Shown here: piece by piece, positions 3,002 to 57,720 of the stretch
How the letters are laid out: each line of letters opens with the position of its first letter
How positions within the stretch are numbered: position 1 is the first letter of the stretch
IMG/VR virus record: IMGVR_UViG_3300027317_000001
Coordinates: 1,898-65,897 of that record
Strand: one strand, 5' to 3'
Origin: a virus
Length of the DNA stretch: 64,000 nucleotides
Made by a program: the position numbers and the translations under genes
The notes under the pieces: model-generated
The model's database searches: none
Told to the model about the DNA's origin: nothing
What the model saw: the letters and a program-made list of their open reading frames with translations, nothing else

Positions 3002-3048
3002 TTGACGCGCTCCCCTCCCTTCAAGGGGAGGGGAGGGGAGCACGTCAA
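3002..3048. mobile_element. minimal palindromic IS200/IS605-end remnant (head-to-head ends)
   Basis: TTGACGCGCTCCCC...GGGGAGCACGTCAA, each arm resembling the GGGGAG(G/C)ACGTCAA ends at 10611, 17241 and 41536. Confidence 0.5.
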
Positions 3049-4955: not shown

Positions 4956-5423
4956 ATGTGGATTCCCGACGGCTGGGGAGTGCAGAGCAGCAGCGAAACC
5001 ATCGGCGGTGACAACCAGATCACCGATAGTTACTCTGTCCGCTATCTACTGGCTGACGACAACGGAAACCCGAAGACACGCATCGACTCCGATGGCCGTA
5101 AGGTCTATGCGGTGCTGACCGTCTATGTCTACGCTGCGGCGCGCATGGATGAGCTCGGCAATTTGGAGCCGGACTCTGACGGTCAGCCGGTTATCTGGCT
5201 GGCTACCCAAGTCGAGCGGATGCTCTGCACTACCCCAGAAGATCCGGGCAGTACGGAGATCTGGTCTGACTACGAGTACACCGATCTTGACCAGTTCTTC
5301 GTCACCCAAGAAGCAGCCGACGTTGCGGCACGTCGCATGGCCGAACTTTACGCGGCTGACGCTCAGCTGTTCCAGCGCGATTTCGATTGGGACGGCCTCG
5401 CTCCGTGGGAGCGGTACGCCTGA
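4956..5423 (+). CDS. hypothetical acidic protein
   Basis: AGGAG RBS before ATG 4956 (MWIPDGW). Confidence 0.65.
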   Translation: MWIPDGWGVQSSSETIGGDNQITDSYSVRYLLADDNGNPKTRIDSDGRKVYAVLTVYVYAAARMDELGNLEPDSDGQPVIWLATQVERMLCTTPEDPGSTEIWSDYEYTDLDQFFVTQEAADVAARRMAELYAADAQLFQRDFDWDGLAPWERYA

Positions 5424-5444
5424 CGGGTTCTCTGGTTACCGGTC
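5339..5444 (+). repeat. 106-bp exact direct repeat (copy 1)
   Basis: identical to 6013-6118. Confidence 0.9.
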
Positions 5445-5477
5445 GGCGGATTCCGCCGACCGGTGGCTGGGGTATCC
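5425..5477 (+). repeat. family-2 53-nt hairpin (copy 3)
   Basis: GGGTTCTCTGGTTACCGGTCGGCGGA T TCCGCCGACCGGTGGCTGGGGTATCC. Confidence 0.8.
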
Positions 5478-5509
5478 GGCAGTACTGTATCCGCTGTTAG
5501 GAGTGATCG

Positions 5510-5680
5510 ATGGTCGCATATGTGGAGCCGGTAGTGGATCGTTTCGGGTTCCTTTACTACGAGATCCGATACGAGGCGAATGGTAAGATCACGGCGGGTC
5601 CCCGGTATTGCTACCGGGAGGTGGCGATCCAGGTTCTCCAGAGCTTGGCTAAGAACCTCGGGTGCACGATTCGCACTTGA
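5510..5680 (+). CDS. small hypothetical protein (56 aa, absent from the ORF track)
   Basis: AGGAG RBS; translates MVAYVEPVVDRFGFLYYEIRY...LGCTIRT*; stop is the TGA within the TTGA end of an IS605-type right end. Confidence 0.6.
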   Translation: MVAYVEPVVDRFGFLYYEIRYEANGKITAGPRYCYREVAIQVLQSLAKNLGCTIRT

Positions 5681-5805
5681 CCTAACTCTGCCCCGGCCGC
5701 GGGGCCGGGGCTTCCTTGTTCATCCGCTGGCGCTCAGCTCCCGATGCAATCCGGCTTATGGTCCGGCTACCCTCACGCCTCGGTCTGTAGCGGAAGGACG
5801 CGGCC
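5677..5805 (-). mobile_element. orphan IS200/IS605 right end / TnpB omega-RNA-like segment
   Basis: minus strand reads ...CGGATGAACAAGGAAGCCCCGGCCCCGCGGCCGGGGCAGAGTTAGGTCAA: subterminal hairpin plus TCAA end typical of tnpB 3' regions. Confidence 0.6.
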
Positions 5806-5806
5806 T

Positions 5807-6012
5807 ATGACCCCCGACCCCACCCGGAAGGAGGGGAGCAACCTTGACGAACTGGCCGCCCGCCGATCGGCTCGGCGCGCAAACACCGCGGGTTAGCAAG
5901 GTCCCCACCTACATCTCCACGGCCGGGCCTGAGTGTGTGGAGCTGGCCGAGGCCGTGGGACTGGTCCTGCACCCGTGGCAGCGCTACGTCCTGAAGCATG
6001 GCCTCGGGGAGC
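5807..6012 (+). pseudogene. 5' fragment resembling an actinobacterial siphovirus/prophage terminase large subunit
   Basis: LGAQTPRV..P....AGPECVELAEAVGLVLHPWQRYVLKHGLGERP resembles the N-terminus before Walker A; sequence then switches into the 106-bp duplication. Confidence 0.6.
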
Positions 6013-6118
6013 GGCCGAACTTTACGCGGCTGACGCTCAGCTGTTCCAGCGCGATTTCGATTGGGACGGCCTCGCTCCGTGGGAGCGGTACGCCTGACGG
6101 GTTCTCTGGTTACCGGTC
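6013..6118 (+). repeat. 106-bp exact direct repeat (copy 2)
   Basis: identical to 5339-5444. Confidence 0.9.
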
Positions 6119-6133
6119 AGCCAGTTATCTGGC

Positions 6134-6236
6134 AATCTCCTACTCGGCTTAAGAAATCACAGTTCACGCGCATTCCCAGTTTCTGATCCTTTAGTCCGGC
6201 GCGGTCGGCGGCCGCGCCGGGGTATGAGATCAGAAA
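6134..6236 (+). repeat. about 103-bp near-identical repeat (copy 2) including a family-1 stem-loop
   Basis: matches 3870-3972; TTTAG at 6190. Confidence 0.85.
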
Positions 6237-6262
6237 CCTAGGTAGAAGAGAGAGATAAAGAA

Positions 6263-6910
6263 ATGGCACGACCTGAGTCTCTTCAAAAACCAGTAGCAAT
6301 AACCTATATGGAATCCCCAGCAAATGCGCTGCTAATCACCACCTGCTCGTACGGCAAAGACTACGCTGTAGGAATCGAAAACACCCAGCCCAACGGGGAA
6401 TGGGGAAAATATGTCTGTATTGGAGTCTATGAAAGGCGTGCCATCGCACTTAACCGCCACAATCGGCTCGTAAACCAATACATCAAGAAAGGCTTCAGCG
6501 TCACCCGGCACGCCGTAGACAACACTACAGAAACCGGACCCCTAACCCGGTGCACCAAGTGCTATTGGCTGTACGAGCGGGAAGGCATCCCCTACGGCAT
6601 CCATCTCTACCGGAGAATCAGCGACCGCCACGGAGCAGAGTGGTATTACAGCATATGCATTGACGTGCACCTCACAACATTCAACACAGCAAAAATCATC
6701 GATCAAAGCCGCATTCTCGGCATCGTCCGCTCGACTCCCAGCGACTACCACGCAGATCTGTACGATCTGAACGTCAACGCGAACATACCAGTACGGTCAA
6801 TAACCTTCTCAAAGACGCGCTCTAAGATCACGAGCGACAACGTGTGCGAAGCGCTCGTCAGCACCTATCACTCGTACAAGGAAGAGCTCAGAGATCACAT
6901 AGTGATCTGA
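6263..6910 (+). CDS. hypothetical protein
   Basis: 215-aa ORF downstream of a family-1 hairpin. Confidence 0.65.
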   Translation: MARPESLQKPVAITYMESPANALLITTCSYGKDYAVGIENTQPNGEWGKYVCIGVYERRAIALNRHNRLVNQYIKKGFSVTRHAVDNTTETGPLTRCTKCYWLYEREGIPYGIHLYRRISDRHGAEWYYSICIDVHLTTFNTAKIIDQSRILGIVRSTPSDYHADLYDLNVNANIPVRSITFSKTRSKITSDNVCEALVSTYHSYKEELRDHIVI

Positions 6911-6919
6911 GCGCTCAAC

Positions 6920-7174
6920 ATGACAAGGAGGTACGGTATGCGGATCATGCACGAGTCCTTCATCCGCGGCGATGAAAAGATCAGCCTAACCGCGCTGCTA
7001 AATGGTGCACATTCAACTCTCACGGTAAACCAGTGGGTACGTGAAATGATCACAAGCTCCGACGTTTGCACAAACGCTGAGCAGGTGATCTCTGCACGGT
7101 TCAACGCTCGTGTCACTTGGCTGAAGAACCGTGGCTACAACCGCATTGGCGGATACGAAAAAACCATCCAGTAG
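6920..7174 (+). CDS. hypothetical protein
   Basis: AAGGAGG RBS favours a start at ATG 6938. Confidence 0.6.
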   Translation: MTRRYGMRIMHESFIRGDEKISLTALLNGAHSTLTVNQWVREMITSSDVCTNAEQVISARFNARVTWLKNRGYNRIGGYEKTIQ

Positions 7175-7231
7175 CCGACCGGATCTAATCGGTAATGGGC
7201 TCAGTCCCATTACCGGTTATGTTCGATCGGA
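7173..7231 (+). promoter_or_regulatory. family-1 intergenic stem-loop variant
   Basis: CCGACCGGA-TCTAAT-CGGTAATGGG..CCCATTACCG-GTTATG-TTCGATCGG. Confidence 0.7.
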
Positions 7232-7243
7232 ACAGGGAAGGCC

Positions 7244-7699
7244 ATGGGAGAGAAAAGGATTACCCACAGCTCAATACTCGCGCTGATAATGACCCTGGAA
7301 AACATCCATCCCAAGCAGATCACAAACGAAATCATCCAGATCAACGGGGAAGAATACCACATCGCTCCAGAAGGCAGCGAAAACAACGTGTACGAAGTCG
7401 AAAACGGTTCCATGGCAGTCAAATGGAACCCCTGCGGTCGTCGCTGCAACGCGGAACAGCACTATTCCAAGATCGACCGCTACGCACCACACTGGTGCCC
7501 TGCCCTGATAATGAGCTGCCCTCATCCCACATTAGCGACAGGCGTTTTCCAAGATTGGCGAAGGGTCATTCAATGGTGCAACGACGAGCAGCGCATCATC
7601 GCCACCATTTACCCGACCGTAGAAGAAGCAACCAACGTCTACAACAAACTAGTTGAACAGTTCACCACGCGTGAACTCTCGCAACCTGTGCTGTTTTAA
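7244..7699 (+). CDS. hypothetical protein, C-terminal QPVLF
   Basis: 151-aa ORF, GGGAAGG RBS. Confidence 0.6.
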   Translation: MGEKRITHSSILALIMTLENIHPKQITNEIIQINGEEYHIAPEGSENNVYEVENGSMAVKWNPCGRRCNAEQHYSKIDRYAPHWCPALIMSCPHPTLATGVFQDWRRVIQWCNDEQRIIATIYPTVEEATNVYNKLVEQFTTRELSQPVLF

Positions 7700-7742
7700 T
7701 CAGTTCCGGAGCTCACCACGCCCGGGGCTGGTTATGACGGCT
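7691..7742 (+). promoter_or_regulatory. family-1 intergenic stem-loop variant
   Basis: TTTAAT-CAGTTCCGG..CCGGGGCTG-GTTATG, two G.U-type pairs. Confidence 0.6.
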
Positions 7743-7759
7743 CAGTGCGGGAGGCCGAA

Positions 7760-8071
7760 ATGAGAAAGATACCAATTGAAGCAAAAATTCACCAAGCATT
7801 AACCGGGGTTCTCAACCTGATGGGATTAAAAGAACCCAAGGACGTTACAATCCGCAACGCCTACCTTTGCCGATACACCGGTAAGGGTTACACCACCGAG
7901 CACACAAAAACAACATGCCAGCCGCTTAACCCGATCGCTGCAGCGAAAATGAAAAGATACCGGGCGCTTTTCGAACAGCGGTTGGAAGACCTAAAAGACT
8001 ACTCAGTTGAGGTAGTCCACGATCCGGAATCCAAGCGCCTACTGCGCATCATCGTAAGCAAGCGAAACTAG
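7760..8071 (+). CDS. hypothetical basic protein
   Basis: GGGAGG RBS before ATG 7760. Confidence 0.6.
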   Translation: MRKIPIEAKIHQALTGVLNLMGLKEPKDVTIRNAYLCRYTGKGYTTEHTKTTCQPLNPIAAAKMKRYRALFEQRLEDLKDYSVEVVHDPESKRLLRIIVSKRN

Positions 8072-8089
8072 CAGAGAAAGGAAGAAAGC

Positions 8090-8743
8090 ATGCTCGAAGA
8101 GATCTACCCGATCAGCATCACCCCGATCGAGGATGGTAAGAAGATCGCCCTCAAGGCGCCCTTCCATCCCGACTGTGCCGACAACGCGAAGTCCATCGGC
8201 GGGCGATACAACCGAGACCGTGGATGGGTTTTCGACGCCCAAGACGAGGCTCGGGTTCGGCAGCTCGCTCGAGAAATCTGGGGAACCGACGGCAGCCACC
8301 CGGTCCCCACATTAACCGTGCTGGTAAACCTTGACGAGATCGACGCCGATATCAGGAGCCAGGAACTCTGGCTCTTCGGACGTAGGATCGCCTACCGTCC
8401 GCGGCGCGATGCAAAGGTCGTACTCGGTGCTGGCGTGATCATCGTCCACGGCGGGTTCCAGTATCGCGGGGGAAGCATGCGCTATCCGGAGCTCGCTCCG
8501 AAGGATGGCACCATCCTGGAGGTGCGGTATGTCCCGCACGAGCACAAGGATCTGAGGCTTCCCGGTATCACCGTCAAGGATGGCGAGATTCCAGACCAGC
8601 TCACCGGAGACGAGCTGATTGCAACTCTCCGGGACCTGGTATGCGACCTGTGGCAGGCAGCCAAGCACGGCCACCCTCTCCCAGAGGACATCACAGCGAG
8701 GATGCAGAGGGCAGGTATCACCCTCCCGGAGAATCACGACTAA
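8090..8743 (+). CDS. conserved phage/plasmid-type hypothetical protein
   Basis: AAAGGAAG RBS; N-terminal APFHP..A.SIGGRY...W.F pattern seen in many phage hypotheticals. Confidence 0.7.
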   Translation: MLEEIYPISITPIEDGKKIALKAPFHPDCADNAKSIGGRYNRDRGWVFDAQDEARVRQLAREIWGTDGSHPVPTLTVLVNLDEIDADIRSQELWLFGRRIAYRPRRDAKVVLGAGVIIVHGGFQYRGGSMRYPELAPKDGTILEVRYVPHEHKDLRLPGITVKDGEIPDQLTGDELIATLRDLVCDLWQAAKHGHPLPEDITARMQRAGITLPENHD

Positions 8744-8794
8744 CCCTCCTGTCCGGCCGGGTGGGCAACCGCCCACCCGGCTCACCAAGACCTC

Positions 8795-8833
8795 CGGATT
8801 CCTCCCCCGCCTTTAGGCCGGGGAGGAATCCGG
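8795..8833. repeat. GC-rich hairpin resembling an IS605-type end / possible terminator
   Basis: CCGGATTCCTCCCCCGCCTTTAGGCCGGGGAGGAATCCGG; core like 56951-56982. Confidence 0.5.
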
Positions 8834-8864
8834 ACTAAAGAATCAACCAGAAAGGAATCAGGCC

Positions 8865-9365
8865 GTGAAGCTGGAAAACGTTCTGACGGAAAGCGGTATC
8901 GAATACAAGGAGGTCGTCACGCGCAGATTGCGCGTGAAGAACCCGCTTATCTGGCTCAAGTTCCGCGCCGCGGACGAGCTGTGGGTCCTTAAGGGCGTTG
9001 CCGCCGAGTACACCACCGTCTGGCACGACTACGACGTTCTGAGCCCAGAAGACCCTACGTTCACCGTAACCGCCGAGTCATCGGACGGCAGCAAGGTGCA
9101 GACCTTCCAGCCACACGAGCTTCCCGGGGACGTCAGGGAGTACATCAAGGACTGGCTGCGGGAGACCCGGCCTGTGCGGCTCGGGGAAACGCTGCGCGCG
9201 CCGATCAGAGAGCAGCTCAAGGCCGAGCGAGAAAAGATTATGCAGCTGGAGCGGGAGCGTGAGCATCTCGTGAACACGATCGCAAGGCTGCGCGGCATAA
9301 TCCACACACTTGAGGCGGAAAACAACAGCCTCAAGAGGCAGCTTCCCGCGGCCGAGGTCGCCTGA
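8865..9365 (+). CDS. hypothetical protein with C-terminal coiled coil
   Basis: AAAGGA RBS, GTG start, heptad-rich C-terminus. Confidence 0.65.
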   Translation: MKLENVLTESGIEYKEVVTRRLRVKNPLIWLKFRAADELWVLKGVAAEYTTVWHDYDVLSPEDPTFTVTAESSDGSKVQTFQPHELPGDVREYIKDWLRETRPVRLGETLRAPIREQLKAEREKIMQLEREREHLVNTIARLRGIIHTLEAENNSLKRQLPAAEVA

Positions 9366-9388
9366 CCAGCGGGAATGGGTGACCTGGT

Positions 9389-9882
9389 ACATGGAGATTA
9401 TGCATCTACTCAATCGGCTGGACCTCTACTGGCGCGTCCACTGGGCAGACTGCCCCGAATTCTCAGCCGACACCGCATACTCGGCCCCCTGGGGAGCCGA
9501 GCGGTGCGAAGATGATCCCTCCCGCTACCGGTGCGTCGCCTGCGACGGCACCGGGATGGACTACACCGATCCCATATGCGGCACTTGCCGGGGGAGTGGC
9601 TGCGCTGACTGCGACCGCACAGGTGTGAGCGCCACCTGTGTCTCATGCACGGGTGAGGGATCAATCGAGTGCGATCCCGGGTACTCGGCATGCACCTCCG
9701 CTGAGGATCTGCGCTCCTATTTTCAGGGTCGGGAGCCAGACCCCGGCGAGCAGGTCCTCATCTTTGAGGGAGAGCTGGCCGGTTACGGCCTAGAAGGGGA
9801 GCCTCTGGTCATCCCCACTCGGACGGTCGCCCGCACCACCTGGGGCGAGCTGACCCGTCTCCTCGAGGAGATGGCGGCGTGA
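9389..9882 (+). CDS. DnaJ-type zinc-finger (CxxCxGxG repeat) protein
   Basis: CVACDGTG, CGTCRGSG, CADCDRTG, CVSCTGEG; start uncertain (9389 or 9398). Confidence 0.65.
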
Positions 9883-10166
9883 CTGTCTCGGGAATCATCT
9901 TCTAGGTCAGCCAGCCGGACGCACGTCGCCGGACGTGCGTCTCCTAGCCGACCTAGGAGGATCTCAGTAGAAATACATGGCTATGTTGCGAGAATCCTCC
10001 TTGATGTTCGTTCAACTATCGCCAGATGAGAGGACGAATTTGATCTCGGCGGTATCGTTGACGAAATTCGGCGGCGCTTTGGAGACACAGTCGATATAAA
10101 TGAACTTTCCGGCGTGAACGCCGGGGAGAACGCCAACCCACGTCAAACAAAAAGAGGTAGGCCCCG

Positions 10167-10562
10167 ATGGAAGACATGATCCTGAACAGCAACACGATGC
10201 CGGGCATCGTTCTTCGCGATTTCTCCATTGACGATCTCCCCCGCAACGCTCGCGACCTGGTGAACCTGGCCGCAAAGGTCTCCTGGAACGTCATCGGCGA
10301 GCGGTTCGCGGACATGGACGGAGCCCCCTTCTTCACCCTCCAGTTCTGGCGACCCATGCCGATCTGGCATGTCATCGCCACCTGGCACAGTCGGCCAACC
10401 GGCGGCCGCGGATACCGACTGACCACGCCGGTCTACAGGCACATCGCACCGGACGGCATTGGCTCCCACTACTGGCGCTATGCGCCGTCCCTGCGGTTCA
10501 TCCGCCAGCTCATGCTCGACAACCCCGTCCGGCCGCTGTCCGGGGAGGGCAACACGGCCTAA
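10167..10562 (+). CDS. hypothetical protein
   Basis: GAGG RBS, GC-rich codons. Confidence 0.6.
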   Translation: MEDMILNSNTMPGIVLRDFSIDDLPRNARDLVNLAAKVSWNVIGERFADMDGAPFFTLQFWRPMPIWHVIATWHSRPTGGRGYRLTTPVYRHIAPDGIGSHYWRYAPSLRFIRQLMLDNPVRPLSGEGNTA

Positions 10563-10574
10563 CCGGTAGTTGGG

Positions 10575-10611
10575 CGGCGAGCCCCAGTCTTCAGGACGGG
10601 GAGGACGTCAA
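10575..10611 (+). mobile_element. orphan IS200/IS605 right-end remnant
   Basis: GAGCCCCAGTCTTCAGGACGGGGAGGACGTCAA; last 14 nt match the 41523-41536 end. Confidence 0.6.
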
Positions 10612-10783
10612 GGCCCAAATGGCGCAAATCGAGGACGAGGTCCTGACCAAGTCCGAGTGATCTTGGCCGGGTGCGGACCCTGGAAATCCGGTCCGCACCC
10701 GGTCATGGCCACTCGGCCAAATCCACCACACCGGGTCATGCGATCCCCTGGAAGATCAGGCATCAGAAAGGAGGAAGAGCAAC

Positions 10784-11089
10784 GTGGTTGCACGGAAAAA
10801 AACCGTATGGGTAAACCCGCGTCTCTTCGAGAATGCGAAAAAGAATCTACCAAAGGGTGTCACCCTATCCACTGCGGTCGAGCTAATACTAGACGCCCTG
10901 CGTGAAAGCAAAATCACATCAACTGACCCGGGCAAGATCAAAGAACGATCTCAAGCCGTCTCTATCTACCTGTACAACCCGGATAACCATAAAGTGTGCG
11001 CATCCCAAATAGCGAAAATCATTCACAGCATCGGTAGCGGTCTACTGGGAGTACGCCTTGAAGTCGAGAACTGCAAGAAGAATCGATAG
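10784..11089 (+). CDS. hypothetical protein
   Basis: AAAGGAGG RBS, GTG start. Confidence 0.6.
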   Translation: MVARKKTVWVNPRLFENAKKNLPKGVTLSTAVELILDALRESKITSTDPGKIKERSQAVSIYLYNPDNHKVCASQIAKIIHSIGSGLLGVRLEVENCKKNR

Positions 11090-11714
11090 GTTAATCAGGA
11101 TAGCCAGAAGCACAAACAACCCGTACGAAAAAGAACTCTACGAGAAAGTCGCCACACTGCTGGCGAAAAAGGTTGGCATGCCGCCCAGCCCAGATGACAT
11201 CGTATGGACCACACTCCCCATGCAGGATGACGCACACCTTAAGCAAAAGTGCGACGCCATCAATTCGGTGATCGAAGCCGTGGGTTGCATCGGGGTACTA
11301 GAACAGTCAGGCAACCAGCCCACCCTGCACATTGTCGGCATTCGATCCTCGGTTGAACTCCTAGAATCACTCCTTCCCACCGTGCTGGGAACCATGGAAT
11401 CCATGCTCGCGATAGCCATCACCGCCTTCGCGAGCGAACTCGCCACCTTAGATGAAAAGTCTTTCGTACAGGAGATGGATATGTTCGCGCGATCATACCG
11501 TCATGGAATCGGGAAGGCGATAGCGGACTGTGTGCGAACACCGATTCCAGACGACAAGCGCAAACAGATTGAGCAAGAGTTCGCAAACCGGTTCCCATGC
11601 ACGGAAGTGATCGAATATGATCTCGACGCCAGAGAATTTAACGCCGGTTACCATGCGGGGAAGGAAGCATGGAGGCGAAAAATCCCTGTTACCCGACGCG
11701 AGATCGAAGGCTGA
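11058..11714 (+). CDS. DUF2786-like domain protein
   Basis: RIDRLIRIARSTNNPYEKEL..KVATLLAKK resembles DUF2786; later IVG..SSVELLE and AGYHAG patterns fit that family. Confidence 0.55.
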   Translation: MKSRTARRIDRLIRIARSTNNPYEKELYEKVATLLAKKVGMPPSPDDIVWTTLPMQDDAHLKQKCDAINSVIEAVGCIGVLEQSGNQPTLHIVGIRSSVELLESLLPTVLGTMESMLAIAITAFASELATLDEKSFVQEMDMFARSYRHGIGKAIADCVRTPIPDDKRKQIEQEFANRFPCTEVIEYDLDAREFNAGYHAGKEAWRRKIPVTRREIEG

Positions 11715-11715
11715 T

Positions 11716-11770
11716 CTGATTGCTGCATAGCCATCTCGGGGTACGCCACCATTCCCGAGGTGGCACTGGA
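11716..11770 (+). promoter_or_regulatory. intergenic stem-loop with family-1 architecture
   Basis: CTGATTGCT-GCATA-GCCATCTCGGG..CCCGAGGTGGC-ACTGG-AGCAATCAG. Confidence 0.55.
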
Positions 11771-11807
11771 GCAATCAGCTTACAAAATCAGCGAAAAAAG
11801 GAAGACA

Positions 11808-12119
11808 ATGGTGCAGGATCATCTCGCCCTGGCCCTAGCGGCCGCCGTGCCCCTGGAAATCGCCCGCCTGCGGGCACTACCCGATGAGGAGCGCGCCCGG
11901 GAGATCAAAGCCCGCACCGGTCAGGCCGTGGCCATGCTGCTCGGCGAGCACGGTGATGATCTCCTGTTCGGTGGGAAGCACTGCGCTGAGGCGTTCGCCG
12001 CCTTGGCCACCGGTCTCGCGTGCCTCGCGTGGCAACCAGGAGGTGTTACCGTCTTTGGTCGGCATTTCTGCGCTGATCACAACCAGTGTCGGGCCGCCGG
12101 GCTGCGGGAGGTGACGTGA
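11808..12119 (+). CDS. actinophage-type hypothetical protein
   Basis: AAAGGAAG RBS before ATG 11808. Confidence 0.65.
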   Translation: MVQDHLALALAAAVPLEIARLRALPDEERAREIKARTGQAVAMLLGEHGDDLLFGGKHCAEAFAALATGLACLAWQPGGVTVFGRHFCADHNQCRAAGLREVT

Positions 12120-12376
12120 TGCCGCGCGAGATCACGCTCGCCGCCGCACTGGGCGTCTACGCGCTCGGGGTTATCATCGTTGCCCCGCTGTTCCGGGTGT
12201 CCAAGGAAGAGGCTGAGTCGGCGGCCCGCCGGGCGTCCATCGTCATGCCGCTTTGGGCTGAGCCGCTATTGCCTGCCCTAGCCGAAATAGCCCGGATCGC
12301 CTACCCGCTGGTCCACGGTCTGCTGTGGCCAGTGCTGCTCGTGCGGGACACCGTGCACAGGATCAGAAGGGTTTAA
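12119..12376 (+). CDS. small membrane protein
   Basis: GGGAGG RBS, two hydrophobic segments, TGATG overlap. Confidence 0.6.
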   Translation: MPREITLAAALGVYALGVIIVAPLFRVSKEEAESAARRASIVMPLWAEPLLPALAEIARIAYPLVHGLLWPVLLVRDTVHRIRRV

Positions 12377-12388
12377 ACCACCATACAG

Positions 12389-12425
12389 AAACCCCTCACC
12401 GACCGGTGAGGGGTTTCTTATTCTT
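12389..12425 (+). terminator. intrinsic terminator ending the early region
   Basis: GAAACCCCTCACCG-A-CCGGTGAGGGGTTTC followed by T-rich TTATTCTTT. Confidence 0.8.
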
Positions 12426-12456
12426 TGCTATCCGCCACACGCACTTAGTTAAGCTA

Positions 12457-12485
12457 TAGGCAGGATCCAGGAAGATAGCTATACT
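12457..12485 (+). promoter_or_regulatory. primary-sigma promoter
   Basis: TAGGCA(12457)-17 bp-TATACT(12480). Confidence 0.6.
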
Positions 12486-12491
12486 AAAGTT

Positions 12492-12663
12492 AGAAGGATC
12501 GCCCAGGAGGTCGCGGGGAAGACGCCTGGTCTGCTGCCAGACCCTTCCGGAATAGCCGGTTGAAGCGCCCCGGATCTCTTGGGATCCGATGAGTGATATC
12601 GGGTACCACCGTACGTGATCCGAAACGCAAGGGGAGCGGGTTATCTCGCTCCCCTTCTTTTTT
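12492..12663 (+). ncRNA. putative ~170-nt multi-stem non-coding RNA
   Basis: promoter upstream, terminator downstream, no credible ORF; closing stem GGATCGC/GTGATCC encloses several hairpins. Confidence 0.55.
12629..12663 (+). terminator. intrinsic terminator
   Basis: AAGGGGAGCG/CGCTCCCCTT stem followed by CTTTTTT. Confidence 0.8.
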
Positions 12664-12706
12664 GATATAAGCCTGATTCCATGCCTCCCCTTAACCGGAG
12701 TAGTTG

Positions 12707-14206
12707 CTACTGCTCTACGAGTTCAGCATCAACGATACCGAGCTGCGCAGCAACATCTTCCATCTTCACCGGGGCTTCCAAAGCCCTAGCCGCTTGGCTT
12801 GCTTCCTTTCCAAAGATCCGGCCGATTAGACCCATTTGTGAGTGCTGTGTGGCTTGAGCTCGCACGGTCAGCGTGAAACCTTCCCGGTCCATATCCTCCT
12901 TGATCTTCAGCATCCGCTGAAGCCTGTCGATCTCCCGGCTCAAGTTCGCATCCAAATAGCCACCATTACATTCCTCGGCGAAACGGGCCAAAAGTATCCT
13001 TTGAGTCTGTATTTCGATCAAAATCTCCTGGATTCGTGCGAGCTGATCACGGGTTCTTGCTTCTACCGGGAGCTCAAAAGCACACTCTGTATCCGGCTGA
13101 TACTGGGGGCACTTATCAGCCAAGAAGCAACCGTCACAAGATCGGATAGGCTGATCATCGATGTCCAAAAGCCGGATGGTCTTAGTGACCTCTCCCGAAT
13201 CCGTAAGCTCCCTCACACGCTTCTCTGCGATCCGTACACCAGGCAGCGGACGACGGCCATCACGACGATTCGACGGCTTTCTAGAACCTCCCAGACGCTT
13301 GCCGGAATTTCCCGATTCAACAGGTTCAATATCAAGTCGATTCGGGGTGAGTTCCGCATTTTCCGCGCCATGCCAATTTTCTGAAGTAGTTACTACTTCT
13401 GATCGACGCTCATTCGCAAACTCCATAAACCTCTGCCAACTCCAAATCGAAAGCCTCAAACACTCCGTGACATCATCCGATTCAATGAGATCCGGATCGA
13501 ACCCAGCATCAAGGAACTGCGTCCGATGCCGCCTACGAGCCTGCTCCTTATACCGGCGCGGGTAACGCTTCAGCTCATTCCCAGTCCACACAATCGTGTC
13601 CCCATACTGGGCAGGAGACAACCAGCTCGTACTCAAAACCGAATCCCATGGGATCTCCATGATCGCATCCATCTGCGTCATGGCCACCCCATGCAAACGC
13701 ACACCCTGCCGGACCAGCGACATCAACAACGGAGTCAGATCCCGGTTCGACGCCACCACCTGTGGCACACCAACACGGCCGTACACAGTGGCGAGCTCAA
13801 CCAGAACCTCAACCCCATCATCCTCATGCCAAATAGGCAGAAACTTGTCCCCGGAAAGCTCGTGAAGCCGATCCCTAAGCTGCTGGCGCATCTCAGGCTC
13901 AAACACCCTGGCATCCAGCTCCGTGACCGTATGAACACGGTCAACATTCGCCTCCACGAACTTCAAATATGAATCCAAAAGAGCAGGCACATCATACTTA
14001 TCCGGGTTCTTGTTAATCGAATGCCCACCCGATTCAACGAAAATGTGAACATCTTCCGGAAACTTTTCAGCAAGCTTCCATCGTTCCGGATAATTTGTGC
14101 GCCTGCTCAATCCCACAAACGACAACGCCATATGGCGTACACCATTTTCATACAACAGTTTCCGCCATCCGGGAATCTCAGCCCCGGCATAAAACAACGT
14201 CGTCAC
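12707..14206 (-). CDS. degenerate TGT/DpdA-like TIM-barrel protein fused to a Cys cluster and coiled coil
   Basis: IFVESGGHS (cf. DSGG), ELD, FLPIWH, LHGV, PWDSVLSTSWL in transglycosylase motif order; C-terminal CDGC..DKCP..C. Confidence 0.55.
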   Translation of the reverse strand: MTTLFYAGAEIPGWRKLLYENGVRHMALSFVGLSRRTNYPERWKLAEKFPEDVHIFVESGGHSINKNPDKYDVPALLDSYLKFVEANVDRVHTVTELDARVFEPEMRQQLRDRLHELSGDKFLPIWHEDDGVEVLVELATVYGRVGVPQVVASNRDLTPLLMSLVRQGVRLHGVAMTQMDAIMEIPWDSVLSTSWLSPAQYGDTIVWTGNELKRYPRRYKEQARRRHRTQFLDAGFDPDLIESDDVTECLRLSIWSWQRFMEFANERRSEVVTTSENWHGAENAELTPNRLDIEPVESGNSGKRLGGSRKPSNRRDGRRPLPGVRIAEKRVRELTDSGEVTKTIRLLDIDDQPIRSCDGCFLADKCPQYQPDTECAFELPVEARTRDQLARIQEILIEIQTQRILLARFAEECNGGYLDANLSREIDRLQRMLKIKEDMDREGFTLTVRAQATQHSQMGLIGRIFGKEASQAARALEAPVKMEDVAAQLGIVDAELVEQ

Positions 14207-15036
14207 GGATTCTTCCTCGTACTTACACGTATATACGAATTTCTCACAGTACCCGTACGCTGCGCAGAAGAAGAGGAAGAAGATTTTTGCGGCTGCTGAC
14301 CAATAACCCCCTGGGCGAACTGCGCTGCCCGCCTAGCCAGCGAAGCCAGCCCAGCAACACGCATATAACGCCGCCTCGGCTGCCCCTGAGCCTGGGACGC
14401 TGACTGCGTCTGCGAGGGGGCAGAAACAGCCGGAAAATTGGCCTGAGGAACGGAAACCGATACCCTGGGGGCGCGAATAAGATGCGGATACTTCTGCTGG
14501 TAGGCGATAATCGTATCCAGGCGAGCCTCAGTACGACGCTTCGTAGTCTCACCAGCCCACTTCGCGCGAAGCTCCAAATCCTTCGCCAGATGATCCCGGG
14601 CCTGCTCCCGGCGCATCCCCTCAAACTTCAACCGCTGCTGCAACCGATCAGCATCGTGCCTCATACGCTGCTTATGCTTCGTCTCAGCAGCGCGAAGCTG
14701 ATGCTGGTGGGCCATGCGCATAATTCGCGCCCTCGTCTTAGCCTGAAGATCAGCCCGGAACTCGTACTCGCTTCGCTTCAAATCCGAAAGACGCTGAGCT
14801 TGTGAAAACGACACATCAGCAGCATCTCGCCGATCCTGCCGACGCCGCTCATACTCGGCTTCACGGCGCTGATGGTAAAACTGCTCACCAAGCTGCTTCT
14901 TCCTCAACCAGCGCCTATCGTCATACTGGCTCTTAGCAATATGCTCAAGAACACGGCCGAAACGGCCACCGCCACCACGACCGGACGAACCCTCGGAAGC
15001 AAGAATCCTAGCGGCGGCCCCAAAATTAATAGCCAT
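14203..15036 (-). CDS. basic R/Q-rich hypothetical protein (possibly virion/DNA-associated)
   Basis: 277 aa, ATGA overlap with the next gene, low complexity. Confidence 0.6.
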   Translation of the reverse strand: MAINFGAAARILASEGSSGRGGGGRFGRVLEHIAKSQYDDRRWLRKKQLGEQFYHQRREAEYERRRQDRRDAADVSFSQAQRLSDLKRSEYEFRADLQAKTRARIMRMAHQHQLRAAETKHKQRMRHDADRLQQRLKFEGMRREQARDHLAKDLELRAKWAGETTKRRTEARLDTIIAYQQKYPHLIRAPRVSVSVPQANFPAVSAPSQTQSASQAQGQPRRRYMRVAGLASLARRAAQFAQGVIGQQPQKSSSSSSAQRTGTVRNSYIRVSTRKNP

Positions 15037-15478
15037 CGATTTCCTCTCTCAGGAGGCGTCGTCTCCGCAACCTATCCTCTTCTATTCTCTTAGTAAGCTC
15101 ACCCCAATTAGGAACCCGTGTGACCTGCCCAAAATGCTTAGGATGCACAAACACCAGCACCGGAACACCCATGTCATACAAATCGTGAACCAAATCCGTC
15201 TCCGGAACAACAACCAAATCAACCACCTGTGAAGCTCGAATCATTCTAATCTGCGTCAACCGATCATCATAACGATTAAAATCAATCGCCAGATGCTTAT
15301 CAAAACCCTCCCGGAAAAGCCACTTATCCAAAAGATCCTTCTTCTGCCGATCAGCTATCAGCGTGATCCGGTACACGGTTGCGAGAGCCTGATAAAGCTC
15401 ACGACCTAGCTCATCAGGCTGACCTGTGACAACATCACGAAGAACCCCATCAACGACAACAAGCGCATGCCGCATCAC
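15026..15478 (-). CDS. HAD-like hypothetical protein
   Basis: N-terminal ALVVVDGVL resembles a degenerate HAD motif I. Confidence 0.45.
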   Translation of the reverse strand: MMRHALVVVDGVLRDVVTGQPDELGRELYQALATVYRITLIADRQKKDLLDKWLFREGFDKHLAIDFNRYDDRLTQIRMIRASQVVDLVVVPETDLVHDLYDMGVPVLVFVHPKHFGQVTRVPNWGELTKRIEEDRLRRRRLLREEIDGY

Positions 15479-16434
15479 GTTCTCCTGATCAATGCCGCAA
15501 TTTTGGAACGATCCGGATCAGGAAGCTCACGACGGTAAAGTGCCCGCTCCGACTCACTAATAGCCCGTTTACGCATGGACACAATCGCCCTCAGAGCGTC
15601 CACAACACCGCTCTTCTTATGCGCCTGCCAGCGATAATTCGCCCAATCCCCATAACCGCCACCGAGTTCAGAAAACGCGGCACTACGACCACCGTGGATC
15701 ATGTCCCACAACGCCTGTGCCTCATCGGCTGCGTGCTCGGCAGCCACCATGGCATTAACCCAGCGTGGGCTACCCGGCCTCTCAGTATCCGCCCGGTGGC
15801 GTGCCTCATTGAACCTGTCCACGATCTGACGCGCGTACGCGACATCCCGGGCAACTTGATCAGACCACGATTGAGGGTAGGTGCGAGCTCGCGGAGCTGG
15901 CGGCCGGACAACCCACATATCCCTGTCCACGTCATACGCCGCGTACGGCCGAATCAGCCGGATATCCGTGGCGGCCGGATTAGCGTACACGGTGAGCTCG
16001 TAAACACCCTGGCCGATTACGGTCCTCGCAGTGAGCGGCCACAGCTCAGTCCGCATCTTCTGGTTGAGAACACTAGCCAGCTCAGAATTGGTTAGCCCCG
16101 AATACCTAGGGTTGTGCTCGCGCAGAGTAGTCCAATCCACGGAGAGCTGACAGTCCAGATCCCGCTCACCACGGCCAGCAGCCCACTGGTAGGAGATCCC
16201 GCTACCTGTCAGGTAGATGCGGCACCACTCTGTGGCACCAGCCCAGTGCTGCGACAGGTAACCATGGACGATGCTAATGATGAGCGCGCGAACCTCTGGG
16301 CGCAAACGATCCCCATTAAACAGGTTTGGATCCAAATGAGTGCTTGGTGGCGAAAAATACCCGGATTCACCTTCGACGATGGTGATGTCCTTATCACCCA
16401 TCGCCCGGCGAAGATAATAGAGACTGCTTGACAT
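15475..16434 (-). CDS. Pol-beta-superfamily nucleotidyltransferase
   Basis: IYLTGS.ISYQW....RDLDCQL (GS and DxD) plus YELTVY third-acidic region. Confidence 0.75.
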   Translation of the reverse strand: MSSSLYYLRRAMGDKDITIVEGESGYFSPPSTHLDPNLFNGDRLRPEVRALIISIVHGYLSQHWAGATEWCRIYLTGSGISYQWAAGRGERDLDCQLSVDWTTLREHNPRYSGLTNSELASVLNQKMRTELWPLTARTVIGQGVYELTVYANPAATDIRLIRPYAAYDVDRDMWVVRPPAPRARTYPQSWSDQVARDVAYARQIVDRFNEARHRADTERPGSPRWVNAMVAAEHAADEAQALWDMIHGGRSAAFSELGGGYGDWANYRWQAHKKSGVVDALRAIVSMRKRAISESERALYRRELPDPDRSKIAALIRRT

Positions 16435-16501
16435 ACATTAATGATACCTTTCGGGAATATATCGGTCAGAACTGAAAATCGTGACCGAAATTCAAAGGGT
16501 A

Positions 16502-16529
16502 TTGACAGCGCTGCTGAGGTGTTTAACAT
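16502..16529 (+). promoter_or_regulatory. primary-sigma promoter for the DUF397 module
   Basis: TTGACA(16502)-16 bp-TAACAT(16524). Confidence 0.5.
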
Positions 16530-16568
16530 AAGGGGTGTCCACGAAAGGTCGCCAACGAGGAGGCAGCA

Positions 16569-16775
16569 ATGAGCGACCTGTACGAGATCCCCCTGGATGG
16601 GGTGAAGTTCCGCCGCGTGTGTGGCGGAAACCAGCAGGAAGAGGAGATGGAGAGCTGCGTCGAGCTCGCCGAAATCCGAGAGGGTATCTACGCGGTGCGG
16701 GACTCCAAGAACCCGAGTGCGGGTACTCTGCGGTTTACTCGTGCCGAGCTCGAAGCGTTTGCTAAGCTCTTCTAA
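16569..16775 (+). CDS. DUF397-family (BldB-like) small protein
   Basis: SCVELA......AVRDSKNP.AGTLRFT.AE.EAF is the DUF397 signature; GAGGAGG RBS. Confidence 0.85.
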   Translation: MSDLYEIPLDGVKFRRVCGGNQQEEEMESCVELAEIREGIYAVRDSKNPSAGTLRFTRAELEAFAKLF

Positions 16776-16787
16776 GAAGAGCACCCG

Positions 16788-16826
16788 ATGACCCCGCCAC
16801 CCCGTATTGGCGGGGTCATTTTTTGA
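16788..16826 (+). terminator. intrinsic terminator
   Basis: ATGACCCCGCCA...TGGCGGGGTCAT followed by a T run. Confidence 0.8.
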
Positions 16827-16839
16827 AAAGGTGACCATT

Positions 16840-17244
16840 ATGCATTATCACACATACCATTGGATCGGGCAGGTATCGGAAATGCGGGACCGATATCGGC
16901 GGCCAACACCACCGCCACACGATCCCGGCATATTCCTCTACTCCAAAGTTCCACCCCTAGTTTTGGGTGATTGGCTGCTCCGGCCAATAGACCAGATCAA
17001 AGCAACATACACTGAACCAGAAGACGTCCTCGCCTGGCTTGAAAAGCACTACCTGGATATGCCGTCACTTCTTCATCCGGACCGAGTAGGATTGGAAGAG
17101 CGGCTGCAAGCGGCTGAAGAGGACATCCGCCAAGGCAAAGACGTGGACTGGTCTTTCTGGCTCAAAGGCCAGGGATGGGTGACCATAGCCGCCATCGCCT
17201 GCCCTAACAAGATCGTCAGGCACCCCTGCCCACTAGGGAATTGA
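16840..17244 (+). CDS. actinobacterial-type hypothetical protein
   Basis: AAAGG RBS before ATG 16840; resembles proteins recalled near DUF397/XRE loci (unverified). Confidence 0.6.
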   Translation: MHYHTYHWIGQVSEMRDRYRRPTPPPHDPGIFLYSKVPPLVLGDWLLRPIDQIKATYTEPEDVLAWLEKHYLDMPSLLHPDRVGLEERLQAAEEDIRQGKDVDWSFWLKGQGWVTIAAIACPNKIVRHPCPLGN

Positions 17245-17291
17245 CGTGCTCCCCGGCCTTCAGGCCGGGGATTCAGCCTGTGCCGCGCGTG
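17241..17291 (-). mobile_element. orphan IS200/IS605 right end
   Basis: reverse complement GCACGCGCGGCACAGGCTGAATCCCCGGCCTGAAGGCCGGGGAGCACGTCAA nearly identical to 41485-41536. Confidence 0.75.
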
Positions 17292-17343
17292 CAGGGAAGG
17301 GTCCTTCCGCATCTACCTGAAGGATGGTAAGGGTCCCCGGGAT

Positions 17344-17646
17344 GTGGTGGACAACCCACGCCACCTGAGCGCGGCCATGCGGAAGCTCAGGCGAGCCCAG
17401 CGCGCCCTGTCCAGAACCCAGCCTGGCAGCAGGCGGCGCGAGCGCGCCCAGCGGAGGGTGGCCCGTTTGCACGCCCTCGTTGCCCAACGGCGCGCCACCT
17501 GGCTGCACCACATTTCCAAGCGCTTGACCACGAGCTTCGGCACAATTGTTATCGAAGACCTGGATGTTGTTAACATGACCAGGTCGGCGCGCGGTACGCG
17601 TGAAAACCCTGGGCGGAACGTCCGCGCCAAGGCTGGGCTCAATCGA
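17344..17646 (+). pseudogene. tnpB: internal tnpB fragment (bridge helix and RuvC-II)
   Basis: LRRAQRALSR..PGS.RR..A..RVARLH..VA..R..WLH..SK.L....IVIEDL.V.NM..SA.GT...PG.NV.AKAGLNR; lacks RuvC-I and RuvC-III. Confidence 0.85.
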
Positions 17647-17690
17647 AACTGTACCGGGGCTGAAGGCCCGTTTGATTGGAAGGATCGGTC

Positions 17691-18026
17691 ATGACCGAAT
17701 TCAAGGCAGGAGATCTCGTTCGGACCGCTGGTTACTCGATCTCTGGAAAGATCCGGTCGATCTTCCGGCTCCGGGGGATCTGGTTCGCGGACGTGGACAC
17801 GGGCGAGATGTACAACCGGCGAATCCCCCTCGATCAGCTCCTCCTGATTGAGCATTGTGATTACTCGGAATGGATCAGGAACATATCGGGCGAGGTCGTC
17901 AAGGCAGTGCCCTGCCGGAACCGGCCGGAGATCCGGCTGAACGGTGGCTACTGGCTTTGCGGGACGTGCTATCGCAACAGAAGGAAGGTCAAGAGTGACC
18001 AAGGCGAGGAAAGCGAGGAAGCATGA
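17691..18026 (+). CDS. hypothetical protein
   Basis: GAAGGA RBS before ATG 17691; C-terminal Cys pairs. Confidence 0.6.
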   Translation: MTEFKAGDLVRTAGYSISGKIRSIFRLRGIWFADVDTGEMYNRRIPLDQLLLIEHCDYSEWIRNISGEVVKAVPCRNRPEIRLNGGYWLCGTCYRNRRKVKSDQGEESEEA

Positions 18027-18073: not shown

Positions 18074-18101
18074 GGGTCCGCCCCACGCGTGCAGGGAAGG
18101 G
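18074..18101 (-). repeat. solitary type I-E-like CRISPR repeat unit (degenerate)
   Basis: minus strand CCCTTCCCTGCACGCGTGGGGCGGACCC; partial copies at 18134-18148 and 17285-17302; no cas genes or regular array. Confidence 0.35.
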
Positions 18102-18111
18102 TCGGCATGAA

Positions 18112-41144: not shown

Positions 41145-41202
41145 TAAGGCAACCCCAATTGCTCAGATCGCCAAGTACTGATAGGATTCAGCGCTAGTTT
41201 AG

Positions 41203-41392
41203 CGGCACAAGCCCGCGGCCTTCAGGCCGCGGTAAGCCGCACCCTCACCGCTGGGCTAGCGGAGAGGTAAAACGCCTGTGGAGCTGGTGTAAGACCTTAA
41301 GGGCTTAAGCCCGGCGGGCAACCGGCTGTGAAGCAGGAAGATCCAACCCGCAAGGGTTGGAATCCCCCTCGTAAACGAGGGAAGGACGTCAA
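41203..41392 (+). mobile_element. 190-bp non-autonomous IS200/IS605 element (left end plus omega-RNA-like right end)
   Basis: follows TTTAG; left hairpin CCGCGGCCTTCAGGCCGCGG; GTGGAGCTGGTGTAAGACC..GTGAAGCAGGAA..GGAATCCCC..GGACGTCAA. Confidence 0.75.
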
Positions 41393-41536
41393 CTCCCAGG
41401 TCTGCGTGTAGAGCCTTGGACGGCCCCAAGCCCCTGCACCGGTCGTGGACCTGCCCCTGCGGGGCAGGAAGCCACAGAAGTGTCGCATGCGCGGCACAGG
41501 CTGAATCCCCGGCCTGAAGGCCGGGGAGGACGTCAA
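41393..41536 (+). mobile_element. second IS605 right-end / omega-RNA-like segment in tandem
   Basis: ends ATCCCCGGCCTGAAGGCCGGGGAGGACGTCAA; last ~50 nt match the reverse complement of 17241-17291. Confidence 0.7.
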
Positions 41537-41551
41537 AAGTTTGGAGGGCCG

Positions 41552-44295: not shown

Positions 44296-44410
44296 GGTTG
44301 TGCCGCCGCCCCCCCGCAGGTGCGCGGTAGTTTGGCGGCGCAAGCCCCGGTCTTCCGGGGAGCACGTTAATTCCTTCCCGCCTAAAGGCAGTGGCACCAA
44401 TACACCTCCA

Positions 44411-56933: not shown

Positions 56934-56946
56934 CGGATCCCTCCGA

Positions 56947-56982
56947 GGAGACCCCCGCCTTTAGGCGGGGGAGGAAGCCAAG
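56947..56982. mobile_element. IS605-type end hairpin remnant in the tail operon spacer
   Basis: CCCCCGCCTTTAGGCGGGGGAGGAAGCCAA between stop 56986 and the RBS of the next gene. Confidence 0.5.
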
Positions 56983-56985
56983 GCA

Positions 56986-57720
56986 TCACCAAGTCCAGAT
57001 TCTCTGGGTGAGCACGTGTGGCATACCTCGCTCGGTTCTACGCATCAGTCCCGACAGGTCTTGGCTCTGCTGACGGCTTCCACCACCACCACCACCGCCG
57101 CCACTGCTACCGGAGCTGCCTGAGCTCTCACCAGGTGCTTGAGTAGTCGGTGGCCTCAGGCGGGCGCTGATCTGCACACTGCACCGCATAGGAACCTGTT
57201 GAGATGAGAAAAGTTCCCACGTAATATCAAAATTCTCAATGAACCCGTAGAGTCTAAGTGCTCCCATGTTGTTAGAGAACACAAACCAAACGGGGGAATA
57301 CATCATGACCCCGTCACTATTCGCTGGGCGTGATTGATTATAAGAATCTTCCTTCAACCCAACGATCGCCTTCAGCACCTCGATATCATGTTGAACCCCG
57401 TTCGCCAGTGTTCCTTCATTAACTTCATAGGTGCGATCAAACATGATTGCGAAATTAATCCGCTGATTTGGCACTGTCACATAATTGCCTGAACCTCGCG
57501 GATCATTTCCGTAACTGATGTTGATATTATCAAGCGTCCCATCTATTCCATAACTCGTACTAATAGCGGATGGGTTATAGAGGAAGTTCAGCTTATGCTT
57601 TTCGCGAAGCGGGCTGGTACCGCTCTCATTGTCCGTCACAATGTATCCACGGGCAATGTTTCTAATACGGCCCATTGGGGCTATATTGAGCAGATTTCTG
57701 TGAGGCGGCATGTTTTCCAT
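56986..57720 (-). CDS. tail tube initiator/baseplate protein (CIS tube-like)
   Basis: FLYNPS.I, I.F..MFDR, V.M.C.V.I. Confidence 0.75.
   Translation of the reverse strand: MENMPPHRNLLNIAPMGRIRNIARGYIVTDNESGTSPLREKHKLNFLYNPSAISTSYGIDGTLDNINISYGNDPRGSGNYVTVPNQRINFAIMFDRTYEVNEGTLANGVQHDIEVLKAIVGLKEDSYNQSRPANSDGVMMYSPVWFVFSNNMGALRLYGFIENFDITWELFSSQQVPMRCSVQISARLRPPTTQAPGESSGSSGSSGGGGGGGGSRQQSQDLSGLMRRTERGMPHVLTQRIWTW

Follow-up and report, generated by a model that had tools for sequence, protein, structure and literature searches.

IS608 (ISHp608) of Helicobacter pylori is reportedly mobilized by a Y1 transposase, TnpA, in a single-strand 'peel and paste' reaction. In the work of Barabas 2008 and Guynet 2009, the element is said to insert 3' of the tetranucleotide TTAC without any duplication, to have a right end of TCAA, and to set each cleavage site through a guide of 4 nucleotides (nt) lying 5' of each hairpin. 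Here we analyze a related right end in the 64,000-nt stretch of the IMG/VR virus record IMGVR_UViG_3300027317_000001 (positions 1,898 to 65,897, hereafter the window), where the remnant of an IS605-family insertion sequence (IS) at 17241-17292 on the minus strand supplies the stop codon of gene134, a phage gene on the plus strand. The elements studied resemble IS608 in that right ends pair the guide GAAT with TCAA, one left end (locus L158) pairs AAAG with TTAC, and the guide-target rule agrees. In contrast to IS608, the type at 17241 uses YTAC and its sister type TCAT, and the copy in the window is a remnant of 52-100 nt that lacks a left end, TnpA and TnpB. A literature search found no paper on the replacement of stop codons by IS605 elements, IS608 included, although such an absence is not proof of novelty.

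Terminal-only derivatives of IS605 elements have been described in Haloquadratum walsbyi as PATEs, which are protein-less and arise via deletion between near-identical terminal palindromes (Dyall-Smith et al. 2011, PMC3119063). They have a 4-5-nt targeting sequence outside the element, and the distance from the end to the palindrome is longer at the 5' than at the 3' end (PMC3119063). This pattern is matched by the 41192 element of the window and by three of its minis (10564, 44325 and 56934), yet they occur in a bacterial phage, and the PATE study is silent on stop-codon placement. The right-end hairpin of the elements studied here carries a UUCA tetraloop like that of the sotRNA and HgcC RNAs, and the HgcC model of Rfam matches 41441-41549 weakly. 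These RNAs are now understood as omega-RNAs. They were found at the 3' ends of tnpB genes of the IS1341 type, and one sotRNA is antisense to the 3' untranslated region of its neighbor, with anticorrelated expression (PMC4615843). This case is the nearest precedent for the antisense guide proposed in an initial annotation of the window; the putative RNA at 17241 differs in having a truncated scaffold. In TnpB/omega-RNA homing, as set out in a preprint by Meers et al. (bioRxiv 10.1101/2023.03.14.532601), DNA next to the right end serves as the guide and the left-end target as the transposon-adjacent motif (TAM), so that for copies on stop codons the homing site would be the 3' end of the gene together with its stop. 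The window differs from that system in having no intact TnpB. The elements, their minis (PMC3119063) and their RNAs (PMC4615843) are already known, and the object in the window is in itself ordinary, decayed IS605-family debris in a phage.

The features at the center of the analysis are as follows.

16840-17244, plus strand: gene134, a phage ORFan of 134 amino acids (aa) whose stop is supplied by the transposon tip
17242-17244, plus strand: TGA stop of gene134, the complement of the right-end tip TCAA (17241-17244 reads TTGA)
17241-17292, minus strand: remnant of a right end and omega-RNA 3' tail, IS605-family type B2, with a 96% match to 41485-41536
17221-17240, minus strand: would-be omega-RNA guide stretch, antisense to the last 6-7 codons of gene134, placed by geometry only
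41393-41536, plus strand: B2-type omega-RNA and right-end stub of 144 nt (model score 98.8 bits), with the 52-nt partner of 17241-17292

The open reading frame (ORF) at 16840-17244 ends in GGG AAT TGA, with the TGA inside TTGA and a GC hairpin next to it. Read on the minus strand, the remnant consists of a GAAT guide, an 8-bp hairpin with a UUCA-type loop, and a 10-nt tail that ends in TCAA at 17241, and its 52 nt are 96% complementary to 41485-41536. The subterminal hairpin about 10 nt from the end, the terminal TCAA and the GAAT 5' of the hairpin all lie within 17241-17276; this architecture is common to all aligned copies, and likeness among them ends exactly after TCAA in every copy. A covariance model (R1), built from eight aligned omega-RNA 3' ends taken from IMG/VR loci, the sister contig L002 and the window, scores 17241-17347 on the minus strand at 41 bits (E 2e-9), with the extension to 17347 being weak. 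Beyond the window, the remnant is about 90% identical to right ends linked to TnpA and TnpB in bacterial genomes, which makes it homologous to the right ends of elements with tnpB (and tnpA) genes. Judged by these comparisons, the minus strand carries a genuine right end of the IS200/IS605 family at 17241. No tnpB gene upstream in the same orientation and no left end with a hairpin were found in the window; given this, and the foreign TnpB fragment that follows in the opposite orientation, the copy reads as a dead remnant and not as an element.

The initial annotation had assigned a second stop codon, at 5677, to a right end of the same kind. An alternative for both places is that the hairpins behind the stops are terminator or punctuation hairpins of the phage itself and resemble IS ends by convergence. 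Repeated intergenic hairpins are abundant throughout this phage, and for 5677 this is the reading we prefer (see below). At 17241 we consider it quite improbable, given the 52 nt that are 96% identical to an omega-RNA stub, the model score, the identity to right ends of transposase-linked elements, and a hairpin with no T run after it.

The stop overlap at 17241 is shared by relatives of the phage. The same junction of gene134 and right end is present in 12 sister contigs (L002, L003 and L296-L305), all reading TTGAC, with gene134 identical or 98% identical. Third codon positions hold 12 of the 14 substitutions that separate gene134 from its L002 counterpart and 9 of the 11 found in metagenome runs X4 and X5, and this distribution indicates that the gene is under purifying selection. 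(Runs X1-X6 were compared as contigs; an apparent joint in X3, 17642>18066, and uncovered parts were not interpreted.) The TGA of the tip is therefore the in-frame stop of a real, selected gene, although gene134 has no match to a Pfam or PHROG family.

The target of the cognate family was read from intact relatives of the remnant. A 20-mer of the omega-RNA subtype at 17241 recovered about 26 IS605 copies in Streptosporangiales genomes, all ending in ...CGTCAA and carried by Thermoactinospora, Thermopolyspora, Nonomuraea, Actinomadura, Microbispora and relatives. Full copies of this B2 family encode a TnpB of 386 aa together with a Y1 transposase that is divergent (Pfam Y1_Tnp, E 2e-41). Five left ends of the family (L363, L354, L360, L373 and L014), which lie in different contexts, begin to agree precisely with the motif (G)CTAC (complement GTAG), located 17 nt ahead of the hairpin. 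The insertion target of the family is YTAC, and its complement, GTAR, holds a stop. A second type (IS-A, L081 and L181) has the target TCAT, whose complement, ATGA, holds a stop as well. In both types the stop in the target complement is in the same frame as the TGA in the tip complement, TTGA, so that an antisense insertion on a stop codon would leave the length of the protein unchanged; across the data reached this arrangement is general.

For the second type, the window holds the uninterrupted site.

17305-17652, plus strand: middle fragment of a TnpB gene, 'IS-C' (Pfam OrfB_IS605, E 1e-17, profile positions 40-119 of 120)
17574-17575, no strand: exact empty site of IS-A, which occupies positions 7158-8537 of L002 and is absent from the window

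IS-A is a complete, TnpB-only element of 1.38 kb with a right end of ...AAGTCAA, located inside the IS-C fragment of L002, a 97%-identical phage. The flanks join in the window as ...GTTAAC/ATGACC (the slash marks the insertion point), from which the target of IS-A is TCAT on the minus strand, with nothing duplicated. Insertion 3' of a fixed target of 4-5 nt without duplication is seen both for IS-A and for the cognate genomic family. The window and L002 form a clean natural before-and-after pair for this insertion.

The left and right ends read here are related by their guides as follows.

Guide AAAG, motif TTAC, left end (L158)
Guide GAGA or GAAA, motif TCAT, left end
Guide CAAG, motif TGAC, left end
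Guide CAGA, motif TGAT, left end
Guide AGTG, motif YTAC, left end
Guide GAAT, motif TCAA, right end

Numbering the guide g1-g4 as the 4 nt 5' of the hairpin foot, a rule that fits all ends read here has the target composed of T or C, the complement of g1, A, and the complement of g4. At most loci, looking upstream of the right end for an exact copy of its hairpin did not locate the left end, since the hairpins of the two ends are not the same.

Left ends within the window were compared through its mini elements.

41192-41392, plus strand: gene-less mini element with left end, last TnpB codons, omega-RNA scaffold and right end (model score 94.9 bits)
10564-10611, plus strand: terminal-only mini of 48 nt, consisting of the start of a left end, one hairpin and a right-end tip, one base past the TAA that ends sense gene 10167-10562
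56934-56981, plus strand: terminal-only mini of 48 nt, IS-A type, preceded by TTCAT

The initial annotation had placed a left end at 41203, preceded by TTAG, and had taken TTAG (CTAA on the gene strand) as the target. On that view, the empty sites at both 5677 and 17241 would read as in AAC TAA, and the change of C to T on insertion would always be synonymous. Both ORFs do end in a codon with T at its third position followed by a TGA within TTGA, as read directly at 5510-5680 and 16840-17244, and TTAG is present at 41199-41202. However, nine left-end copies in different contexts (10564, 44325 and 41192 in the window; L016, L026, L033, L044, L052 and L062) share about 10 more bases leftward of the proposed boundary, and their likeness is lost only ahead of a pentamer resembling TTGAC, which indicates that by alignment TTAG is internal to the left end; the flanking target position of the 41192 mini is 41187-41191 (TTCAG). 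Targets read directly are TCAT and YTAC, so the cognate left ends follow a different tetranucleotide, the very outcome that the initial annotation had named as incompatible with TTAG. The sole candidate for a left end behind TTAG, L192, was dropped: its boundary comes from a single copy, its ORF has no family match, and the rule obeyed by all other copies predicts a TGAC-like target for it. Moreover, 5677 is not an IS end. Taken with these results, a TTAG target is hardly credible. The wobble change is from G or A to T and can alter the last residue, from Gln to His in L360 (below) and, as predicted, from Lys to Asn at 17241.

Exchanges of one stop for another were examined at other loci, both against IS-free orthologs and from reconstructed empty sites. 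In L360 (Nonomuraea salmonea), a gene for a SIS-domain protein ends in ...CA/T TGA on a right end whose left junction is CTAC, while the IS-free ortholog L385 ends in ...CAG TAA and has TTAC exactly there. Gln followed by a stop also closes three other orthologs. By this comparison the gene has kept its length, its last residue has changed from Gln to His, and its stop is now TGA. Der/EngA of Nonomuraea lactucae ends in AAG AAT TGA on a right end, and its orthologs end in GAC AAG TAA or TGA. In two species the stop of a YCII gene lies on a right end, whereas in a third, IS-free species the gene is longer by one codon. Orthologs of this gene in two genera (79% identical; L380 of N. maritima, L381 of T. 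rubra and L382 of N. salmonea were compared) carry B2 right ends at slightly different positions, which could reflect either repeated independent insertions at one gene end or an old insertion. For the TCAT type, the reconstructed empty sites give ACA TGA>ACT TGA in L081 (tail completion protein) and CCA TGA>CCT TGA in L181 (methyltransferase). A third reconstruction, L115 (ATA TGA>ATT TGA), was not counted as proof due to a doubt of 2 nt in its boundary.

The window and the IMG/VR loci gave 69 unique hairpin-bearing right ends, and in 18 of them (26%) the TGA of the tip terminates an antisense ORF of 100 codons or more, compared with 5.5% of the 4761 TTGA tetranucleotides in the same loci (binomial p 2e-8). 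Matches to PHROG profiles run close to the profile end for a holin (138/141), a baseplate wedge protein (141/148) and a minor tail protein (670/681), and stop earlier for a recombinase/invertase (203/254), a methyltransferase (198/244), and tail completion and head morphogenesis proteins; by these profiles, many of the ORFs closed by tips show themselves to be real genes. In the bacterial genomes, 6 of 24 copies end Pfam-supported genes, der included. For actinophages and Streptosporangiales genomes, this amounts to roughly one copy in four on a stop codon. The claim of a protein-silent landing is borne out for the length of the protein, by the reconstructed or real empty sites and the enrichment, but not always for its last residue.

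The account that we believe, with moderate confidence, best explains 17241 starts with an IS605-family element of the type that carries Y1 TnpA and TnpB in Streptosporangiales, which would have inserted as single-stranded DNA just 3' of YTAC on the minus strand. On the plus strand the target would read GTAR, with TAR being the stop of gene134. As the right end always terminates in TCAA, the junction on the plus strand would become T-TGA, keeping the ORF length, turning the stop into TGA and changing the wobble base of the last codon from G to T (GGG AAG TAR to GGG AAT TGA). Stop codons would be among the few cost-free insertion spots in a packed genome, and copies would accumulate there. The element would then have decayed until 52-100 nt of its right end were left, next to an oppositely oriented piece of another TnpB gene to which they are joined, and in one sister lineage a third TnpB element would have landed in that fragment at TCAT. 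Direct support exists for the identity of the right end, its overlap with the stop and the conservation of that overlap, the selection on the gene, the cognate target, the swap at other loci and the enrichment. The ancestral end of gene134, probably GGG-AAG-TAR with Lys as the last residue, is deduced from relatives of the element, since no empty allele was found and the left end is lost. Geometry likewise places the putative omega-RNA guide antisense to the 3' end of gene134, as had been proposed, although the scaffold is truncated and no intact TnpB is encoded in the window.

Several observations weigh against insertion on a pre-existing stop. The left end of the 17241 copy is lost, with none located anywhere in the window, and the data searched hold no IS-free allele of the gene134 site: a protein search of IMG/VR gave no relative of gene134, a search of 5.8 billion proteins gave one cluster with the same end and no empty allele, identity look-ups of neighboring proteins led to 12 contigs that all read TTGAC, again with no empty allele, and a metagenome scan for a base other than T after ...GGGAA returned 41 chance matches and no gene134 homolog. 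A 97%-identical relative in two metagenomes (X4 and X5) has GTCAC in place of TTGAC at the junction, as well as a 1-nt deletion, which leaves no in-frame stop, and its ORF would continue through the hairpin; these are two changes within 4 nt, although the gene differs by just 3%. Because of this relative, strict conservation does not extend to the exact C-terminus of gene134, and the site may have had a more complex history. A related type of left end is found in the minis at 10564 and 44325, with a TTGAC-like target whose complement lacks a stop; had such a left end been the partner of 17241, the insertion would have cut a longer ORF. Finally, the enrichment at stops may reflect the survival of harmless insertions and not a preference.

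These observations bear on a different history, in which the element landed inside a longer gene and the TGA of its tip fell in frame by chance (one in three), truncating or re-tailing the ORF. Neither an empty allele nor a homolog outside this phage lineage is at hand for judging the native length of gene134. A B1-type left end with a TTGAC target predicts GGG AAG TCA A..., with no stop, and the X4/X5 relative reads exactly AAG TCA C, with the ORF continuing. We nevertheless regard truncation of a longer gene as unlikely: the right-end subtype matches the genomic family with the YTAC target, several genes that end on such tips elsewhere are full length by profile or orthologs, and the third-position bias of substitutions in gene134 holds up to its last codons. 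Insertion on the stop of gene134 thus remains our preferred explanation for 17241.

The second site that the initial annotation had attributed to a right end did not bear this out.

5510-5680, plus strand: ORF of 56 aa ending in ACT TGA, followed by a GC hairpin at 5690-5711, which is not an IS605 right end

The ORF ends in CGC ACT TGA, with the TGA within TTGA. The covariance model gives 5682-5770 on the minus strand 16 bits, for the hairpin only, which is the same as for ordinary hairpins. The spacing from hairpin to end is 14 nt, compared with 10 nt in right ends, and GAAG, the sequence in the guide position, would specify a tip other than TCAA. The 160 nt behind the hairpin consist of conserved intergenic sequence of the phage and the first part of a terminase gene. 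The likeness to right ends is confined to the hairpin, and its sequence has no other copy in IMG/VR. In L001, the sole relative with the same gene and hairpin, the ORF ends ...ATC CGC TGA CC, thus with CTGA (TCAG on the minus strand) in place of the TTGA that one extra codon produces in the window, and the TCAA tip is not kept. The preferred reading is that 5677 is an ordinary hairpin behind a stop codon, and of the two right ends claimed at first the one at 17241 stands. The segment 5448-6012, comprising the small gene, the hairpin and a 5' stub of the terminase gene, is foreign, 85-95% like the IMG/VR contig L001, and bracketed by a 109-nt direct repeat (window 5339-6121). A similar partial duplication of the terminase start is present in L001.

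The debris behind 17292 belongs to other elements. The IS-C fragment lies in the orientation opposite to the right-end remnant and is 47% identical to the TnpB of IS-A in L002 and 40% to that of B2, so it derives from a third element. The possibility that it is an inverted piece of the 17241 element was rejected on its 40% identity to the cognate TnpB. An 18-nt direct repeat (17286-17303 and 18086-18103) overlaps the inner edge of the remnant and brackets the TnpB fragment and a 111-aa gene; it may mark the route by which the debris was assembled.

17691-18026, plus strand: phage ORF of 111 aa that follows the transposon debris, without a family match and called in every sister contig

Run X3 contains a 2-kb contig at about 8 times the depth of the phage that matches the TnpB fragment (window 17315-17642) at 98%. 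By its depth, the source element of IS-C is abundant in the X3 community, probably in the host genome.

Mini elements are scattered over the window. Those at 10564-10611, 44325-44370, 56934-56981, 3004-3048 and 8800-8830 comprise terminal-only minis of 46-48 nt and palindromic units of two right-end tips. The architecture of the 10564 mini recurs in L026 and L044, only 4 nt separate the right end of the 56934 mini from the stop of gene 56986-57720, which is antisense, and the 41192-41392 element has a 91% match to the 3' part of IS-A in L002.

The window covers nearly all of a virus record of 67.8 kb and encodes a DNA polymerase A, a DnaB-type helicase, a ribonucleotide reductase, a baseplate J protein and a tail lysin. 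Near-identical contigs were found in metagenomes from compost, manure, bioreactors and soil, and a blastn search against a phage GenBank collection gave no match. Positions 1-165 of L002 resemble a LacI-type bacterial gene and are fused to phage DNA at about window position 10649, the result of either a chimeric assembly or a different left neighbor. The right-end subtype at 17241 is restricted to Streptosporangiales (L347-L376), apart from three or four chance 20-mer matches in genomes of other groups. Combined with the origin of the contigs in compost and manure, this distribution points to a thermophilic member of the Streptosporangiales as the probable host of the phage.

Elements of this kind can occupy gene ends while altering at most the last residue, as at the GTPase gene der. 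This gene is essential in model bacteria. For annotation, many IS605 copies that are taken as 'intergenic' own the stop codon of their neighbor, which also bears on the persistence of these elements in densely packed phage genomes. As regards TnpB, copies placed in this way would have a natural guide directed at the 3' end of a gene. We propose, tentatively and with more doubt than confidence, that the cleavage grammar of the IS200/IS605 family (T/C-Y-A-N on the left, TCAA on the right) permits an antisense safe harbor on the stop codons of intact, even essential genes. If this is true, the guide and the TAM together spell the 3' end and the stop of the IS-free allele, and TnpB homing would be aimed at a sequence that the host cannot freely delete or alter. 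Should the grammar also have been shaped by this advantage, and not be a by-product of survival, it would explain why the targets of these elements so often hide a stop codon.

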